Positions 11,339 through 64,000 of a DNA stretch of 64,000 nucleotides are shown piece after piece. The notes below the pieces were generated by a model that saw only the letters and a list, made by a program, of their open reading frames with translations, made no database searches and was not told the origin of the DNA. The DNA is from Caldisericia bacterium (GTDB taxonomy: Bacteria > Caldisericota > Caldisericia > JAAYUI01), in NCBI GenBank assembly GCA_963674785.1, contig OY771555.1, forward strand, positions 144,851 through 208,850, in the 5' to 3' direction. Made by a program: the position numbers and the translations under genes. Within the stretch, counting starts at the first letter, position 1. Every line of letters begins with the position of its first letter.

Positions 11339-12850
11339 ATGAAAAATAAAACGATAACAGCCATAGCAATAACAGTATCAGTTATTATTGTTGCAGGAAT
11401 TGGAGCATTTGCACTTATGAGCATCTGGAAGAATTCCTCAATAGATCCACTTGCATTTATACCAGAAGATTGCGGATTCTACGCCGTCTTTGATTCAGGT
11501 TTAAACATGGAGGATGTAAAAAGACCTATCGAATCACTTGGAGACACATACAAAAACGAATTTGAAGACTATTTTGACGAATTCATGGAGACTGACCTTT
11601 CATTTCTAAACCTCAACGGTTTTGTTGTGAAGAACTCCGACAGCATTTTATCACAGGATTTTGTTATTGGTCTTGAAATCACAGATAAAGCTGGTGCAAG
11701 AAAAGGGCTAGAAAATATCTACAATATCTTTGATTTTGAAGATAAACCCGAAATTATTGAAGATGAAAAAGGATTCATAAAAATCGGGGATGATTTTGTG
11801 TGTTTTGTTGAAAAGAACTTCCTGCTAATATCTCAAAGCTCAAGAGCAATAAATGATGTCCTTGATGTAAAATCAGGGGAAGATAAATCCATAATGGAAA
11901 ATGCCGATTGGAAGAAAATCAGCCACGAATTGTCCACTAAATTTTCAATTTTTGTACAAGTCCCCCTGGGTAAAGAACCTCTTGTTGTCGCTGCAACAGA
12001 ACTTTCAGAAAAGACTTCGGAGCATGGATTAGAGATAATACTTATCGAAGGGCGTCAAAGATTGAAGTCATCAATTCCAGATAAAGAAACAAGAGAAATA
12101 ATCGCACTTTTTGATGAAGTTTTCGAAAATAGCCGAGATTTGTCAGGCATTCTGTCGATGCTTCCCGATGCACCAATTGTTGGCGCTGCTTCTATGATTC
12201 CAAATTTCAACCTAGACATTTCAGACTCCAATGATAAGAATGTTTTCTTGGATGGTGATTATGGTTTCTGGGTCGACCCTGATGAATTCAATTCCCCAGC
12301 TATTTTTTGTCAGCTTATGAAGCCAACGGGTGTTTCAACAAGTAAACTTCTTGAATACATTTTCCCAGAGGATGAATTCAAGATTGAAGATAATCTGGGT
12401 GTAAAAGAAATTTATTCTTCCTTCTTTTTTCCAATGTCCCCATTTAATGATGAAGAACTAGAAGAGATTTCATTTGAAACCGAACCATCTTTTTTTGCAT
12501 CAGAAAAGAACGGAACAGCAATTATCTCAACAGAAATTGATGCCCTGGATTTTCAGCCATCCAAAAAGAACATAAAAACTGAGGATGCGGTGGCTTACTG
12601 CATAATCGATTTCAAAACCATGATTCAAAACAGTCTTGATTCAATAAAGGATTCCGAATATCAACCCGCATACGGATTAGATGAATACAAGGAAAGACTA
12701 AAGAAAATCGATCTTAAAGCAGTGATCAGACTCTATGAAAAGGACACAGATATGAGACTTAAACTCTCGTTCTCTGGTGATTTAAAAGAAATAAAATCAA
12801 TATTGATGGATGCTGCTGGCGAGATAACAAAAGAATCAAGTGAACAATAG
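11339..12850 (+). CDS. Membrane-anchored hypothetical protein (tandem paralog 1)
   Basis: 503 aa; N-terminal TM helix then acidic domain. Shares blocks with the next gene (ADWKKISHELSTKFSIF, EHGLEIILIEGRQ, NSRDLSGILSMLPDAPIVGAASMIPNF). Confidence 0.7.
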   Translation: MKNKTITAIAITVSVIIVAGIGAFALMSIWKNSSIDPLAFIPEDCGFYAVFDSGLNMEDVKRPIESLGDTYKNEFEDYFDEFMETDLSFLNLNGFVVKNSDSILSQDFVIGLEITDKAGARKGLENIYNIFDFEDKPEIIEDEKGFIKIGDDFVCFVEKNFLLISQSSRAINDVLDVKSGEDKSIMENADWKKISHELSTKFSIFVQVPLGKEPLVVAATELSEKTSEHGLEIILIEGRQRLKSSIPDKETREIIALFDEVFENSRDLSGILSMLPDAPIVGAASMIPNFNLDISDSNDKNVFLDGDYGFWVDPDEFNSPAIFCQLMKPTGVSTSKLLEYIFPEDEFKIEDNLGVKEIYSSFFFPMSPFNDEELEEISFETEPSFFASEKNGTAIISTEIDALDFQPSKKNIKTEDAVAYCIIDFKTMIQNSLDSIKDSEYQPAYGLDEYKERLKKIDLKAVIRLYEKDTDMRLKLSFSGDLKEIKSILMDAAGEITKESSEQ

Positions 12851-12935
12851 CCTATCCAAAGCATATTAAAAACGATAACTAAATCCTTGTGTCAAAATAA
12901 GAAAGCAGATACTATTTTCGGTGTTTGGAGGAAAC

Positions 12936-14402
12936 ATGAAAAATAAAATTACTGTTGTTTTAATAACCGTTCTTTTGGTTATTTTTATTGGTGGGGCAGT
13001 CTCACTTGGGCTTGTGGCTGATGCAAACGAGAATTCTCCTGGTCAGACAGATTACGCCAGTGAAAATGCTATGTTGTTTGTGCAGTTTGACTTAGAGTAC
13101 AACGCTCAAGATTTGATTGACGAAGTAAAACTTGTAATTCCGATGTTTGAAGATTTGATTGATGAAGAATTTGTTGGATTACTTGATTTTGATTACTCAT
13201 TCATAGACCTAGCGGGTTTTTATGTATTCGAGTCATACAGCGAAATTGACTACTCAATAAACAGCACCTTTGGGTTAAGGCTTTCAGGGGAAGGTGATCC
13301 TGAAAAAGGAATCGAATCAATTCTTGGCTATCTTGAAGAAACTTTTGAATTAGGAATTGAACATACAGACGAAGGCTACATAATCATTGATAACATCTAC
13401 ACAATGTATTTGGCTGAAGACTACATTCTTTTTGCTGAAGATACTCAATCAATTGAGTTTGCTCTTGACATAAAAGAGAACGACAAGCCAACCATCGCTG
13501 ATAGTCCCAATTGGAAAAAAGTTGAAAACGATTTATCTAAAAACTTCTCTTTCCTCATTAACTACCCATCCTTTATGGGCGAAAGCAGCATTCCAATTGC
13601 TGGAACATATATAAATCCAAGCAAAAATGAATATGGAATCGAACTTATTCTGGTTGATGGAAGAGAACAATTCGAAAACATGTTTTCTTTTGATGCTACG
13701 GGAGAGATTGCATCAAGTCTCAACTCTCTTTTTGATCAATCCAGAGACCTGTCAGATACAATATCATATCTTCCTGACACTGGACTTCGTGGGGCAATTG
13801 CTGGAATCCCAAATTTCGATGAATATTTCACTACTGTCGAGTTTCTTGAGGGCAGCAATGGGTATTGGTTAGACCTAGAAGATGAGTATCTTGGTAAAGA
13901 AGGTTTGATGTATGAGGCAACTGACATTGAACCAAAAGAGCTTCTTCTGAAGCTCTATCCTGAGAAAACTTACCACTATGAAGAAACCGAAGATGGGTTT
14001 GAGCTATACAGACTTCCATTCTTTTTTGATCCGTCAGAGGATGAATTTGACATAACCGACAAAACTCCAGATTTGTTTTGTCAAATCGATGAAAGCAAGA
14101 TATACGTCGTCTCAGACGAATCAATGAAACAAGAAACCTGGGAAAAATCAGAATTCAAGGATACTGGTGATTCTGTAGCATTCTTTGAGCTTGACTATGG
14201 AGAATTGCTCGAATCGATGGCTTCATCTGATGATGAAATGGGTTTTGGAATTGATCCATCTCTTTTAGCGGGACTTGTCAAGGAAGCTGACATAAAAGTA
14301 AACGTCAGATTATTTGAATTAAAACCAAATATAAAGCTTGATGTAATTATGAGTGGCGACTTCGAACTGCTTTCTGAGCTTGTTGAGAGTCTATTGCCTT
14401 GA
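12936..14402 (+). CDS. Membrane-anchored hypothetical protein (tandem paralog 2)
   Basis: Paralog of 11339..12850 (SPNWKKVENDLSKNFSFL, EYGIELILVDGREQ, QSRDLSDTISYLPDTGLRGAIAGIPNF). Start moved to ATG at 12936, preceded by GGAGG. Confidence 0.7.
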   Translation: MKNKITVVLITVLLVIFIGGAVSLGLVADANENSPGQTDYASENAMLFVQFDLEYNAQDLIDEVKLVIPMFEDLIDEEFVGLLDFDYSFIDLAGFYVFESYSEIDYSINSTFGLRLSGEGDPEKGIESILGYLEETFELGIEHTDEGYIIIDNIYTMYLAEDYILFAEDTQSIEFALDIKENDKPTIADSPNWKKVENDLSKNFSFLINYPSFMGESSIPIAGTYINPSKNEYGIELILVDGREQFENMFSFDATGEIASSLNSLFDQSRDLSDTISYLPDTGLRGAIAGIPNFDEYFTTVEFLEGSNGYWLDLEDEYLGKEGLMYEATDIEPKELLLKLYPEKTYHYEETEDGFELYRLPFFFDPSEDEFDITDKTPDLFCQIDESKIYVVSDESMKQETWEKSEFKDTGDSVAFFELDYGELLESMASSDDEMGFGIDPSLLAGLVKEADIKVNVRLFELKPNIKLDVIMSGDFELLSELVESLLP

Positions 14403-36078: not shown

Positions 36079-36108
36079 TAGCGAATAAATAAATCTTCTC
36101 ATCAAAAA

Positions 36109-36135
36109 CCCCCGAGGAATCCTCGGGGGTTTTTT
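36109..36135 (+). terminator. Rho-independent terminator
   Basis: CCCCCGAGG-AAT-CCTCGGGGG followed by TTTTTT, 30 nt after the stop of 34783..36078. Confidence 0.75.
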
Positions 36136-36796
36136 AAATTTGTTATGTAAATAAAACAATCAGAACACGTTGGAAGAAAAGTAGTTGATCAGCTTGTGAA
36201 TGCTCTGAAATCGTCACTACAAAAAAGCAAAGCTGACAGCCAGGAAAGACCTAAAAAGACTTCATTATGAAAGGTGTTTTGTTACTTTTTCATTCACAAA
36301 GAGTGTTTATGAAGAGCATGCAAGACTAAAACGTGAAGATGATATTGATATTGAACTTATGACTGTGGAGGATGTTGTAAAGGAATTCAAACAATAAACG
36401 ACTGACAGTGTTGTTTCCTCATCTCAATCAGTATAATCACTATGACAGACTAAAAGAGGGGAGGCGTACATGGGAAGAAAATCTTCATCTAGGAAAAGCA
36501 AGACTTCATAAAGAAAGACTGGTTCATCTCGTAATAGAAAAACCGTTAATGTTAACTCCAACACTCGAAAAGACGGAACAAAAGTCCATGAGCACAAACG
36601 TTCTAAACCAGACTAATAAATCCAAGACTTTATCATCACACCACCAATAGGCAAAATACAAAAAAGAACTGTCGAGTCATTGAATGACATTAAAAAAAAA
36701 TGAATAAAAATCCTTAACTTGCGAAGTGTAGCTATACTGACTTTCTCTGAGATTCCTACGTACTATCTCATATAACAACAATACGAAAGGAATATC

Positions 36797-38746: not shown

Positions 38747-40280
<1,534 letters not shown>

Positions 40281-40668
40281 CATCTTATATATGTATTATA
40301 TATAAAGTGTTATATTAAATAACTAGGTGCTCTCACACCTATATTGTCATTCTGGAATTGCACCGGATATTGACTTTCATGTGTTAATTGCTATCTAGTT
40401 TTCAAACTACTACATTTCCCAGAAGTGAATCGAGGAAAGTTCAGTTTACCACAAAAGGTGACCACCGTCAAGCAGTTACCCTTTCGGCCAACGAGTAATG
40501 AAATATAACCCAAAAAGTTATAGAGTCAAGGAATGGATATAACATGAATAATATATTGCATTCATGGGACTTTCTTGAGAATCAAATTCAATAATCGAAA
40601 GGTTCCTTTAACCATCATTCGAAAGATTTTCACCAAAACGCTTCACATTCAACGATTAAATCGAATCC

Positions 40669-60084: not shown

Positions 60085-60131
60085 TTTTACCCACCTCACA
60101 TTTCATTGCCCCACAAATGCCGTGATAGCCG

Positions 60132-60303
60132 GGGGTTTCTGCACCCCTCATCAAGTGGGTCGCAACTTTCATAAGGCTTATGAACCAGATCTTTACAGGC
60201 ACAGTCGCCTCAAGGCTTCGCAACCCTTCCATTTACGTTAGGCAGAAAACGTAGCGTATGCACGAACACAGCAGGGCATATGAATATTCTAGCACAAACC
60301 CCA
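60132..60303. ncRNA. Candidate structured RNA (GC-rich intergenic element, identity unknown)
   Basis: About 170 nt at roughly 50% GC in an AT-rich genome; termini GGGGGUUUCUGC (60132-60142) and GCACAAACCCC (60293-60303) can pair (10 of 11 bp). No SRP, tmRNA, RNase P or tRNA motifs found. Confidence 0.25.
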
Positions 60304-60861: not shown

Positions 60862-61455
60862 CTAAAACAACTTCCAAAAAAACAAAACTGCGAGAGCAAC
60901 AACCGATACAATCAGCCCCCAATCAACCATGTGATAACCAGCATATTGCTCAGTAAAAGTCGCATTTGGAATCGCAACTTTTATATCTTCGATCAATTCA
61001 TCAGGTTTTTGAAGCTCATCCAGGGCGATAGATCCAAACAACCTGAGATCTGAACCAGTAAATATTTGAAGCTCTCTTCCAAACTTGCTTGACCTTTTGA
61101 CAAGCACAATTCGAACAACATCTTCAAGCTGGACTACTTTCGCAGTAACCTGCAGAAACGTGTCGGAAAGGTAAACCCTTACGATCCCAGTTCTGAAGAA
61201 AAGCCTGGAAAGCCATGCCACAAAAATTGCCAGTCCAATAGTCCCGATTACGTATACCCATCCAATATTCAATTTATAAAACTCCACAGGCAACAACATA
61301 GAAAACACTGCCGCATAGACAATAACTGAATAATAAAAATTGATCGGATGACCTGAACTCAACGTATAATACTTTTTTATCTTCTCTTCTTCCACGCTCT
61401 GGATTATATGACTTGACCAAGCATAAGACAAGTTAGTAAAATGAAGCAAGTGCAA
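60862..61455 (-). CDS. Hypothetical membrane protein
   Basis: 197 aa with two N-terminal TM helices; no recognised motif. Confidence 0.55.
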   Translation of the reverse strand: MHLLHFTNLSYAWSSHIIQSVEEEKIKKYYTLSSGHPINFYYSVIVYAAVFSMLLPVEFYKLNIGWVYVIGTIGLAIFVAWLSRLFFRTGIVRVYLSDTFLQVTAKVVQLEDVVRIVLVKRSSKFGRELQIFTGSDLRLFGSIALDELQKPDELIEDIKVAIPNATFTEQYAGYHMVDWGLIVSVVALAVLFFWKLF

Positions 61456-63669
61456 TACTCGCTGTATGAAAAGAAGAGAACCAAGATTCCGTCACCGAGA
61501 AATGACGAAAAACTCAAAGCGCTAAGGAAATACTTTTTTGTTTCATTCTCTATTCTAATCCTCATTGTATCGGTGTTTTTAATAATTCAAATATGGCCAA
61601 AAAAACCAGAAATAAAACTGATACTTGGTACAGAAGGCGAGGTAGTTTTTGATGGGAAAAGCATCGGAATTGGAACAGAATTCACCCTCAGAAAACTCGA
61701 AAAAGGACTTCACACGATTGTTGCAAAGTCAACAGAAAAAATTCCTTTTTTACTTGAAGAAGTCGAAGAAATAAATATCCAACCTGGGGTTAAGACTGAA
61801 CTTAAGATGCTTTCTGTTTGTGAACTGAGCATCAACAGCAATCCTCCAGGCGCAAGGGTAATGATCAGCTCAATAGATGGTGAATTGAATCTTGGAAAAA
61901 CTCCGATCGACACAAAAATCCAATCCGGTCATTTTGAAGTTACTGTCAGGCTTCCTGGTTATCCAGAGTACAGAAAATCCATATTGACCGTTGATCTTGA
62001 ACCTATCGACTTGAATATTGACTTAGAGCAACAAGCACTTTCAGAACCAGGTGCAAAAAGACTCATCAACAATCTTACAATCAAATCGATGATGCATGGG
62101 TCAAGCTTCATAATCAATGGAAAAAATTATACTTCACCTGGATCATTTGCAATTGACCCTGGAATTCATGAAACCACCTTGATATATGGGAAAAATGAGA
62201 TATTCAAAACTGAAGTGGTATTCCCATCCGTAGGGAAACCAGTAGTTTTGTCTTGTCCAGCAAATATAACAAATCCATCCATCCATTTCTCAGGTAATCT
62301 TCATGTCATCCCTCAGGATGCAAGAGACATATCGATATCAAATGATGATAAATTTCTTTTTTACTCAACACCAACAAGATATATCTACGAGACGGTTAAA
62401 TCAGTTGATCTTGAAACTGGAGAAACAAGATGGGTCGTTGATGTTGATTCCGCATGGGAAAACCGACCAATCATAATTGGTGGATGCAGCAACACCAGCG
62501 TATACGGGATGGCTGGAGTCCCTCCAAAATTCTCGGCCTCTCCATTTGCAATCGACATAAGACACGGAGTTGAAAATCAGAGATTCTACAGTGAAAACTC
62601 TGCTCTTCCATTATCAGAAAAACCTATTGACCATTTGTCAACACCCACTTATGCAGGAGTTTGGAGTGGTTATTACAAAACCAGCAAAGAGGTTACAGGG
62701 TTAGAGGTTCTAATTAAGTCTCAAAACGAGGACGAGAGATTTTTGAAAATACTTGATAAAGGATGGGATGCAAAATATCTGGGGTACTCAGAATCCGCAA
62801 AGGATAACTCAAAACCAATTTTCATATTTCACGTGTGGAAGGGAAACATAAACAGGCTCCTGATACTTGACCCCGAAAAAAAATTGTCGGACATCGAATT
62901 GGATAAGAACCCTAAGGAGAAAAATCCTGAATGGGTAACAATTGGTATATCAATCCAACCTGACTTCCTCGTTTCAGATTCGCACAAAATCCCTGCGAAA
63001 CATTTTCTGATATGTGATAGCAAAAACACATATGCAATCACTTATCCAAGTGGAAAGGTAAAATGGAAAAGATATTTCAATATCCCAACAACAGAAAAAC
63101 CGGAATTTAAGATTATCAAGGACAAACCGGTAGTTCTATACACATTCGATGTAAACCCATTTGAAGTCCAGCTTGACGTGAAAACTGGAAAAGAGGTAGA
63201 TCGAAGAGAAAACCCAATCACTCCTCAAGAGTTTTTCAATCCAGATTCTAATATGATGGGCATTTTTCTTAAGGAAGATAAATTATTTTCAGGGGTTTAC
63301 GAAGACCCTCAGGGTGGTTTTAGCTATAGATGGGAAAAAAAGGTCGAAAATGGACTAGCATTTTTAACTGAATGTGGTGGCATAACAATTTCTAGAGGCA
63401 CCTTCACAGTTCTTGCGAGCCATGGGTTAGAAGAGATTTTATCTTTTAATGTCCCAGGATTTGATCCAACCCTCCCATTTGACTATATCTCAACTCCAAA
63501 CCATATTGCTCTACATAGTAACAATAAATGCTGGGTCATTAACCAAGATGGTCTAATTGTTGGATTTTATCAAGACATTTCAAAAATTGAGAAAGCTAAT
63601 GACTCGTCAACTTATGCATTTTTAGCGGTTTCTAAAAATCAAAAACTCATAATCCCCTGGTCGAACTAG
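61441..63669 (+). CDS. PEGA domain-containing membrane-anchored protein
   Basis: 742 aa; N-terminal TM anchor; PEGA-like segment NSNPPGARVMISSIDGELNLGKTPIDTKIQSGHFEVTVRLPGYPEY; large beta-rich C-terminal region. Confidence 0.7.
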   Translation: MKQVQYSLYEKKRTKIPSPRNDEKLKALRKYFFVSFSILILIVSVFLIIQIWPKKPEIKLILGTEGEVVFDGKSIGIGTEFTLRKLEKGLHTIVAKSTEKIPFLLEEVEEINIQPGVKTELKMLSVCELSINSNPPGARVMISSIDGELNLGKTPIDTKIQSGHFEVTVRLPGYPEYRKSILTVDLEPIDLNIDLEQQALSEPGAKRLINNLTIKSMMHGSSFIINGKNYTSPGSFAIDPGIHETTLIYGKNEIFKTEVVFPSVGKPVVLSCPANITNPSIHFSGNLHVIPQDARDISISNDDKFLFYSTPTRYIYETVKSVDLETGETRWVVDVDSAWENRPIIIGGCSNTSVYGMAGVPPKFSASPFAIDIRHGVENQRFYSENSALPLSEKPIDHLSTPTYAGVWSGYYKTSKEVTGLEVLIKSQNEDERFLKILDKGWDAKYLGYSESAKDNSKPIFIFHVWKGNINRLLILDPEKKLSDIELDKNPKEKNPEWVTIGISIQPDFLVSDSHKIPAKHFLICDSKNTYAITYPSGKVKWKRYFNIPTTEKPEFKIIKDKPVVLYTFDVNPFEVQLDVKTGKEVDRRENPITPQEFFNPDSNMMGIFLKEDKLFSGVYEDPQGGFSYRWEKKVENGLAFLTECGGITISRGTFTVLASHGLEEILSFNVPGFDPTLPFDYISTPNHIALHSNNKCWVINQDGLIVGFYQDISKIEKANDSSTYAFLAVSKNQKLIIPWSN

Positions 63670-63744
63670 AAACAACTCAAAGAAGCAACATCTGAAAAGG
63701 GTTTACCAACCAATGAACACTACAACAAAACACTGTGAAAACAA

Positions 63745-63890
63745 GTTCAGCCGGGCGTGGGAGGGTCACCCGGCTGGGAGCATCCCCCTTTCAGGGGATT
63801 TTGGGAGGTGGGATCTGGGGTAGATCCCTTCACGGACCTGGGGAAATCCGCGTAGCACCAAGCTACCACACCACTGTATGTTTTCGATTA
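63745..63890 (+). ncRNA. Candidate structured RNA (GC-rich multi-hairpin element, identity unknown)
   Basis: About 145 nt at roughly 60% GC with five consecutive hairpins (AGCCGGG/CCCGGCU; AUCCCC/GGGGAU; GGGAUCU/AGAUCCC; CGGA/UCCG; GUAGC/GCUAC). Strand not determined. Confidence 0.25.
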
Positions 63891-64000
63891 AAAAAAAGTT
63901 GTATCTCGTGTGTATATAACTGATTATTCCATTGTTTCTCAAAACCTGCAATGGTAATTTTGATTAAGATTACTTGTTCAGAAATAACTCGGGCATTAAC

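Follow-up and report, generated by a model that had tools for sequence, protein, structure and literature searches.

A strongly conserved candidate small RNA gene with C-rich single-stranded segments in Caldisericia

The GC-rich cluster of hairpins at positions 63745 to 63890 of the window (the whole 64-kb stretch of Caldisericia DNA analyzed here) very probably marks a free-standing, noncoding RNA gene of ~140 nt on the minus strand, running from ~63880 to ~63738. Over this interval (63738 to 63880), the putative small RNA folds better than shuffled sequences (z = −3.6 to −3.8; 0/200 shuffles as good), and it is kept in six other contigs. By analogy with known regulatory RNAs, it may represent a new family of trans-acting small RNAs (sRNAs) that carry C-rich seeds and block ribosome-binding sites; we regard that whole statement, mechanism included, as evenly balanced between right and wrong. 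All five stems listed in the initial annotation of this region were found in the sequence, and the compositional contrast that it described was borne out: within 100-nt windows, the element reaches 65% GC, compared to 39.1% for the whole window (GC contrast, 55 to 65%), and is the only GC island of the window besides the 16S gene. The annotation's suggestion of a structured small RNA also stood, given the conservation, the strand-specific stable fold, and the lack of a conserved open reading frame (ORF), except that the strand is minus rather than plus. Nor does the element lie immediately after the PEGA gene, as had been stated; it starts ~75 nt past the PEGA stop codon (63667 to 63669).

A covariance-model scan, which the initial annotation had proposed, found no family in Rfam; our own model matched six homologues in other Caldisericia contigs (L001, L002, L014, L005, L038, and L045) at 125 to 139 bits. 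Two of these were found through contigs encoding homologues of the window's PEGA protein, with the element in the same place: L001, a Caldisericia metagenome-assembled genome (GCA_041391325.1) whose PEGA protein is 81% identical to that of the window, and L002, a contig from a JGI metagenome (PEGA identity, 50%). A degenerate DNA pattern derived from the loops was also scanned against GTDB genomes and JGI metagenomes. The GTDB scan gave 33 matches, two of which were real (L005, from an uncultured member of the Caldisericales, and L014); the others were C-rich low-complexity sequences or cyanobacterial CCCACACCTCCCAC-type repeats. The JGI metagenome scan gave one match, L038. L045, the seventh copy, lies upstream of a homologue of the gene that neighbors the element in L005, and a search of ~300 kb of sequence with covariance model R2 returned only the known homologues and L045. 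A peptide-pattern scan of the GTDB genomes with the window's PEGA protein gave no match. The RNA is specific to a subgroup of the Caldisericia (Caldisericales) and has been sampled from three lineages.

Conservation of the element is both high and sharply bounded. Its core of 111 to 114 nt is identical to that of the window at 98% of positions in L001, 93% in L002, and 85% in L005. Between the window and L002, identity is 92.9% for the core, compared to 76.9% for 6S RNA, 61.8% for the nucleotides of the PEGA gene, and 34% for the stretch from the element to the PEGA stop codon (the 3′ flank). One block of 43 nt is identical across all seven sequences, and the stems are as invariant as the loops. 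So high a level of conservation, ending so abruptly at the edges, points to a functional sequence that is under strong purifying selection.

In the predicted architecture, all of it on the minus strand, the 5′ hairpin region varies between lineages, and the 111-nt core that comes after it, with four hairpins, is nearly invariant. The variable 5′ part (63852 to 63880; hairpins CAUAC/GUGUG and GUAGC/GCUAC) is replaced in other lineages: the first of its hairpins is changed to UAUAU/AUAUG in L001, with pairing kept, and the 5′ hairpins of L002 and L005 are unrelated. Core helix 1 (63832 to 63851; GCGGAUUU/AGGUCCGU; 96.9% of cells paired) closes an invariant CCCC loop (63843 to 63840; unpaired probability, 0.8 to 1.0) and includes three G-U pairs that exist on the minus strand only. 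Core helix 2 (63810 to 63828; GGGAUCU/AGAUCCC; 100% paired) closes an invariant ACCCC loop (63821 to 63817) and holds the one fully compensatory change, from A-U to G-C at alignment columns 30/42. It is followed by a single-stranded linker, CACCUCCCAAA (63800 to 63810), which looks like an anti-Shine-Dalgarno (anti-SD) sequence and in which CCCACCUCCCAA is invariant. One-sided changes (A-U to G-U; U-G to C-G or U-A) leave the stem of core helix 3 (63782 to 63799; AUCCCCU/GGGGGAU) intact, and since the loop of this helix varies (GAAA, UGAAAA, UAAC, or UCAC), the helix is probably structural only. Core helix 4 (63748 to 63776; stem CAGCCGGGUG/CGCCCGGCUG) is terminator-like; all 10 of its base pairs are invariant, nine of them G-C or C-G, and its invariant 9-nt loop, ACCCUCCCA (63766 to 63758), has an unpaired probability of 1.0.

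Substitutions in the stems amount to the one compensatory change and four one-sided changes through G-U (helices 1 and 3), and the single change that does not pair is a G·G mismatch in L005 and L038. The covariation score was reached by 64/500 shuffles; with only 4 to 5 distinct sequences, it is not significant, so that the case for the structure comes mainly from thermodynamics and from strand asymmetry.

Signals resembling a promoter and a terminator flank the structured region. A −10-like box, TTTAAT (63892 to 63887), shares a short stretch of the minus strand (63883 to 63892) with TAATCGAA (63890 to 63883), which lies ~40 nt upstream of the core and is invariant in 7/7 aligned sequences (alignment positions T13 to A20) while its flanks diverge. 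The box reads TATAAT in L002, CATAAT in L014, and CTTAAT in L005, L038, and L045. No −35 consensus was seen, and a promoter scan made no sigma-70 call here or in the homologues. At the other end, inspection revealed a U tract, UUGUUUU (63738 to 63744), which begins 3 nt beyond helix 4; L001 has U6 here, L002 has U8, and L014 has U7, and the tract takes the interrupted form CCUCCUUUCUU in L005, L038, and L045. A terminator scan made no call at this locus or in the homologues, since a loop of 9 nt and a spacer of 3 nt fall outside the rules of the tool (a loop of ≤8 nt and a tract ≤2 nt after the stem). Read by eye, the box and the tract would be the promoter and terminator of the element. If the element is transcribed in this way, the 5′ end of the RNA would be set by the −10-like box and its 3′ end by the U tract. 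In the L005 clade, the tail past the terminator hairpin (L005, 905 to 950; L038, 519 to 565; L045, 1001 to 1045) reads GACCUCCUUUCUUGAUG, after which comes an additional hairpin, GCAUCACGGC/GCCGUGAUGC. Within this 3′ tail, ACCUCCUUUCU matches 11 nt of the 16S 3′ end exactly, and to judge from these letters, the RNA may be longer in this clade and carry a third anti-SD copy.

The single-stranded parts of the core are rich in C (23 of 47 unpaired positions, compared to 4 that are G). The unpaired segments that do not vary are CCCC in loop 1, ACCCC in loop 2, CACCUCCCAA in the linker, GCUCCC in the spacer, and the terminator loop already described, and the predicted unpaired probability of the C-rich segments is 0.7 to 1.0. 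The 3′ end of the 16S rRNA of this genome is GGAUCACCUCCUUUCU; CACCUCC in the linker matches seven nucleotides of its anti-SD region exactly, and the terminator loop comes close to doing so. The linker is predicted to be accessible in the window, L001, and L005 (unpaired probability, 0.7 to 1.0) and to be sequestered by a 5′ GGAGGGAG in L002 and L014 (0.04 to 0.21). The sequestering segment is lineage specific (GGAGGGAG or GAGGGAG; L002, 9595 to 9610, and L014, 6688 to 6703, both on the minus strand); its predicted pairing partner is CCUCCC of the linker. Judged by invariance and by unpaired probability, the RNA possesses the conserved, accessible single-stranded seed looked for in a trans-acting sRNA.

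We hypothesize that the exposed C-rich segments act as seeds. In this scheme, the last hairpin and the U tract would form the intrinsic terminator of the RNA, and the seeds would pair with G-rich stretches of mRNA, above all with ribosome-binding sites of the GGAGG type, which are present on many genes of the window. Such pairing would block binding of the 30S subunit and so repress translation, and it might also change mRNA stability. We infer both the base-pairing mechanism and this class of targets from the likeness of the seeds to those of known RNAs. When the 43 start regions of the window were scanned, duplex energies tracked SD strength (r = 0.53 to 0.64 with the 16S anti-SD sequence); no extended specific complementarity to these regions was found, and we propose no individual target. 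The only other copy of the ACCCTCCCA 9-mer in the window lies within the PEGA coding sequence (63469 to 63477, plus strand), in the same sense as the loop, and is probably there by chance.

The main rival to a base-pairing regulator is an RNA that binds a protein or the ribosome as a decoy, sponge, or scaffold. Its repeated C-rich, anti-SD-like motifs would titrate a protein that binds C-rich RNA or a factor that recognizes the 16S 3′ end, by a logic analogous to that by which CsrB and RsmZ titrate CsrA through repeated GGA loops. We consider this explanation rather unlikely, although several features speak for it. The stems are as invariant as the loops, and the 43-nt block is identical even though the proteins of these lineages are only ~50% identical; the element is more conserved than 6S, itself a protein-binding RNA; several similar motifs are set on separate hairpins; and the L005 clade adds ACCUCCUUUCU as a third motif. 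The constraint on the stems exceeds what a simple seed-plus-scaffold sRNA would need, and a partner protein or the ribosome would fit it equally well. Against this, no candidate partner protein is encoded beside the RNA, and the neighbors differ between lineages. Moreover, we know of no bacterial protein family that is titrated by CCUCC-type loops. Finally, the C-rich-loop RNAs that have been described act by base pairing (PMC6486639, PMC4615179).

A related proposal, to which we give less credence still, is that the RNA mimics the 3′ end of 16S rRNA, so that its anti-SD copies would rival the 30S subunit globally for SD sequences, or else would titrate some factor recognizing the 16S 3′ end. 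It would draw on a highly conserved and probably abundant RNA with two or three anti-SD copies: the linker has CACCUCCC, the terminator loop has CCCUCCC, and one clade adds the exact ACCUCCUUUCU of the tail. The self-sequestration of the linker by the 5′ GGAGGGAG in one lineage would then be an on/off switch. If this proposal were true, the RNA would be a global translation governor, not specific to particular genes, in a deep-branching phylum for which no sRNA has been described.

The genomic context of the element bears on whether it acts in trans at all. In the window, it sits between two convergent genes. The first is the PEGA-domain gene (61441 to 63669, plus strand; 742 aa; PF08308), which is convergent with the RNA and whose nearest protein relatives are labeled Caldisericia bacterium; the second is represented by its 3′ end only (63970 to 64000, minus strand; … LMPELFLNK*), the last 31 nt of the window. 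This second gene is the orthologue of a 426-aa protein in L002 and L014 and of a 269-aa ORF in L001. Identification of the downstream gene, which the initial annotation had called for, thus gave the convergent PEGA gene as the one downstream of the RNA and the 426-aa orthologue as the one upstream; both genes are of interest here as context only. In L001, the orthologue is split into ORFs of 269 and 83 aa (12523 to 13624, minus strand), possibly by a frameshift, as a pseudogene, or through an assembly error.

Four sequences (the window, L001, L002, and L014) have the 426-aa gene on one side of the RNA and the PEGA gene on the other; in L005, L038, and L045, the RNA instead adjoins an unrelated gene of 187 to 209 aa. 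In L005, at least 760 nt without an ORF precede the RNA; this stretch (positions 1 to 760) has stop codons in all six frames and is unusually long for noncoding sequence in a compact genome. In more distant Caldisericia (L003, L004, and L039 to L044), the PEGA gene directly abuts its neighbor with no RNA between them, and covariance models found no copy of the RNA in these contigs (8 to 22 kb each). No second copy was found beside the homologue of the 187-aa gene in the genome of L001 or on L046, from the sample of L002. The element keeps its sequence while changing its neighbors, which argues against its being merely the 3′ untranslated region (UTR) or terminator of one gene, and with a third lineage showing a different context, it behaves as an autonomous gene.

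It nevertheless has to be considered that the element works in cis only, serving the upstream 426-aa gene as a structured 3′ UTR and terminator (and possibly stopping the PEGA transcript as well), with no function in trans. In the window, L001, L002, and L014, the element lies 75 to 80 nt past the stop codon of the 426-aa gene with no recognizable terminator between them, so the last hairpin and U tract would end that mRNA too. However, the RNA is present without the 426-aa gene in L005, L038, and L045, and L003 and L004 carry both convergent genes without the RNA. In addition, 111 nt at 93% identity, loops that do not vary, and a conserved −10-like box are more than a terminator requires. We therefore judge a purely cis-acting element to be improbable.

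The choice of strand rests on the fold, on base pairing across lineages, and on the flanking signals. The minus strand of the element in the window has a minimum free energy of −62.0 kcal/mol (z = −3.79; 0/200 shuffles as good), whereas the plus strand, at −52.2 kcal/mol, is no better than its dinucleotide shuffles (z = +0.30; 119/200 as good). The minus-strand fold is the better one because several G-U pairs turn into A-C mismatches on the plus strand. In four lineages, z values for the RNA strand were −3.58, −4.29, −5.31, and −4.13 (0/200 shuffles each), compared to +0.30, +0.03, −0.54, and −0.10 for the opposite strand. Likewise, the 32-pair, four-helix structure has standard pairs in 99.2% of cells on the RNA strand and in 86.7% on the opposite strand, and the promoter-like box and the U tract occur on the minus strand only.

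A structured RNA on the plus strand, whether an element of the PEGA 3′ UTR or a riboswitch, leader, or sRNA for a gene beyond position 64000, is accordingly very unlikely. The plus strand has the stems too, and its loops carry GGA and GGGAGG motifs, but in none of the lineages tested does it fold better than its shuffles, with the G-U pairs becoming A-C. The GGGGAU-then-UUUU stretch that had been noted as a terminator-like feature of the plus strand is not conserved; the U run is replaced by AUAUU in L002 and CGUU in L005. The initial idea of a riboswitch or leader for a gene beyond the window also fails, since that gene is on the minus strand with its stop codon at 63972 to 63970, which places it upstream of the RNA and leaves a plus-strand leader nothing to lead into.

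We see hardly any prospect that the element encodes a small protein. Candidate ORFs exist (63735 to 63923, plus strand, 62 aa; 63747 to 63869, minus strand, 40 aa; 63766 to 63951, minus strand, 61 aa), and L002 has GGAGGGAG upstream of an AUG. However, lineages differ by 0, 1, or 3 nt in the length of the linker between helices 1 and 2, so that the reading frame moves against the invariant flanks; in the alignment, the variable loop of L005 brings a UAA into the frame of the 40-aa ORF; and substitutions show no third-position pattern, being concentrated in loops and linkers. A six-frame peptide query also matched nothing similar among 5.8 billion proteins. Equally remote is a repeated extragenic palindrome, miniature inverted-repeat transposable element, or other mobile-element remnant: although the element is an intergenic hairpin cluster whose locations differ between lineages, it is single copy in the window (by blastn) and in ~250 kb of related contigs, has no terminal inverted or direct repeats, and is orthologous and syntenic across genomes whose neighboring proteins are only ~50% identical.

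Other RNA genes were seen in the window. A complete bacterial 16S rRNA gene lies at 38747 to 40282 (minus strand) with long ORFs on both sides; no 23S, 5S, or spacer tRNA gene was found anywhere in the 64 kb, so that this 16S gene looks like part of an unlinked rRNA operon. One tRNA-Val gene is present. A probable 6S RNA gene at 60104 to 60280 (minus strand) scored 43.4 bits against a gathering score of 46.4 (E = 2e−05); the syntenic positions of L002, L003, L004, and L014 score above the threshold (46.5 to 57.2 bits), and the counterpart in L001 (8662 to 8835) is 93% identical. This 6S candidate is probably what the initial annotation had counted as the first of two GC-rich multihairpin elements. 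A weak His_leader match at 36099 to 36248 (minus strand; 30.4 bits, with the gathering score at 49; E = 0.6) can most likely be put down to chance.

We searched Rfam at both gathering and permissive thresholds with the window and eight related loci and found no family for the element. The initial annotation had recognized no resemblance to tmRNA, SRP, RNase P, or 5S RNA, and Rfam agrees: no Rfam or ARAGORN match to SRP, tmRNA, RNase P, 6S, 5S, or tRNA was found at 63700 to 63900. A passing resemblance to SRP RNA (CAGGUCCG.GAAGG) was rejected, given that there was no Rfam SRP match and no long closing helix and that the register of the tetraloop does not fit. A match to snoR9, at 19.5 bits, was far below threshold. 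The only structured near-match in Rfam on the minus strand was ar14 (RF02344), at 15.7 bits (E = 1.2) against a gathering score of 58.8; this match is far below threshold and contains many noncanonical pairs. RsaE (RF01820) and 6C (RF01066) gave no match at E ≤ 10 with permissive filters over 63500 to 64000 and none over the whole window.

To our knowledge, only one genus of the Caldisericota has been cultured. A literature search found no paper on regulatory or small RNAs in this phylum. Rfam 15 has no entry for the candidate described here, although its sequence is more tightly constrained than that of the 6S RNA in these genomes. If the RNA is expressed, its covariance model would serve annotators for a gene that is now left blank or could be miscalled as an ORF.

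Several well-studied systems resemble the element in how they present C-rich sequence. The closest in layout are the cuckoo, alpha-r14, and CcsR RNAs of the Alphaproteobacteria. Cuckoo RNAs consist of two to four adjacent hairpins without a multiloop, leave anti-SD-like C-rich motifs unpaired, and, like ar14, carry CCUCCUCCC in each hairpin loop (PMC4615179). The element described here shares the adjacent hairpins and the unpaired anti-SD-like C-rich motifs. Unlike cuckoo and ar14, it has no CCUCCUCCC, its loops being CCCC, ACCCC, the variable GAAA, and ACCCUCCCA, and it places one motif in the linker (CACCUCCCAA) and one in the terminator loop. Moreover, its stems are invariant, whereas those of cuckoo RNAs are highly variable; it is single copy, whereas cuckoo RNAs are multicopy; and it belongs to a different phylum.

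In the 6C RNA of Actinobacteria, the C-rich hairpin loops are direct mRNA-binding sites that act through G-C-rich pairing without a chaperone (PMC6486639). Our candidate is likewise small and highly conserved, with C-rich hairpin loops, but it differs from 6C (RF01066) in the number of hairpins and in loop sequence, and the phyla are unrelated. In RsaE/RoxS, IsrR, and RNAIII, unpaired C-rich motifs pair with G-rich or SD regions and block translation (PMC2790875, PMC6158497, PMC5419742, PMC9410917); UCCC motifs occur in RNAIII and the Rsa RNAs (PMC4615179). With RsaE/RoxS and the other C-rich sRNAs of Firmicutes, the element has in common a 3′ terminator hairpin (a putative one here) and high conservation across a clade; unlike RsaE/RoxS, it has at least four C-rich sites, including near-exact anti-SD copies, and there is no sequence similarity. 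As in the sponge RNAs CsrB, RsmY, and RsmZ, an array of hairpins presents a repeated short motif, but here the motif is C rich rather than GGA. Motifs of the GGA type occur on the plus strand only, no Rfam match to these RNAs was found, and the strand evidence led us to reject a CsrB-like reading of the plus strand.

The element shares only its working principle with RsaE/RoxS, 6C, and cuckoo/ar14, to which it has no sequence relation. A regulator of this kind would open no new category of mechanism; the family would be new and the working principle a known one. If the RNA is expressed, the pairing of C-rich loops with ribosome-binding sites would have arisen independently in another deep lineage besides the Firmicutes, Actinobacteria, and Alphaproteobacteria.
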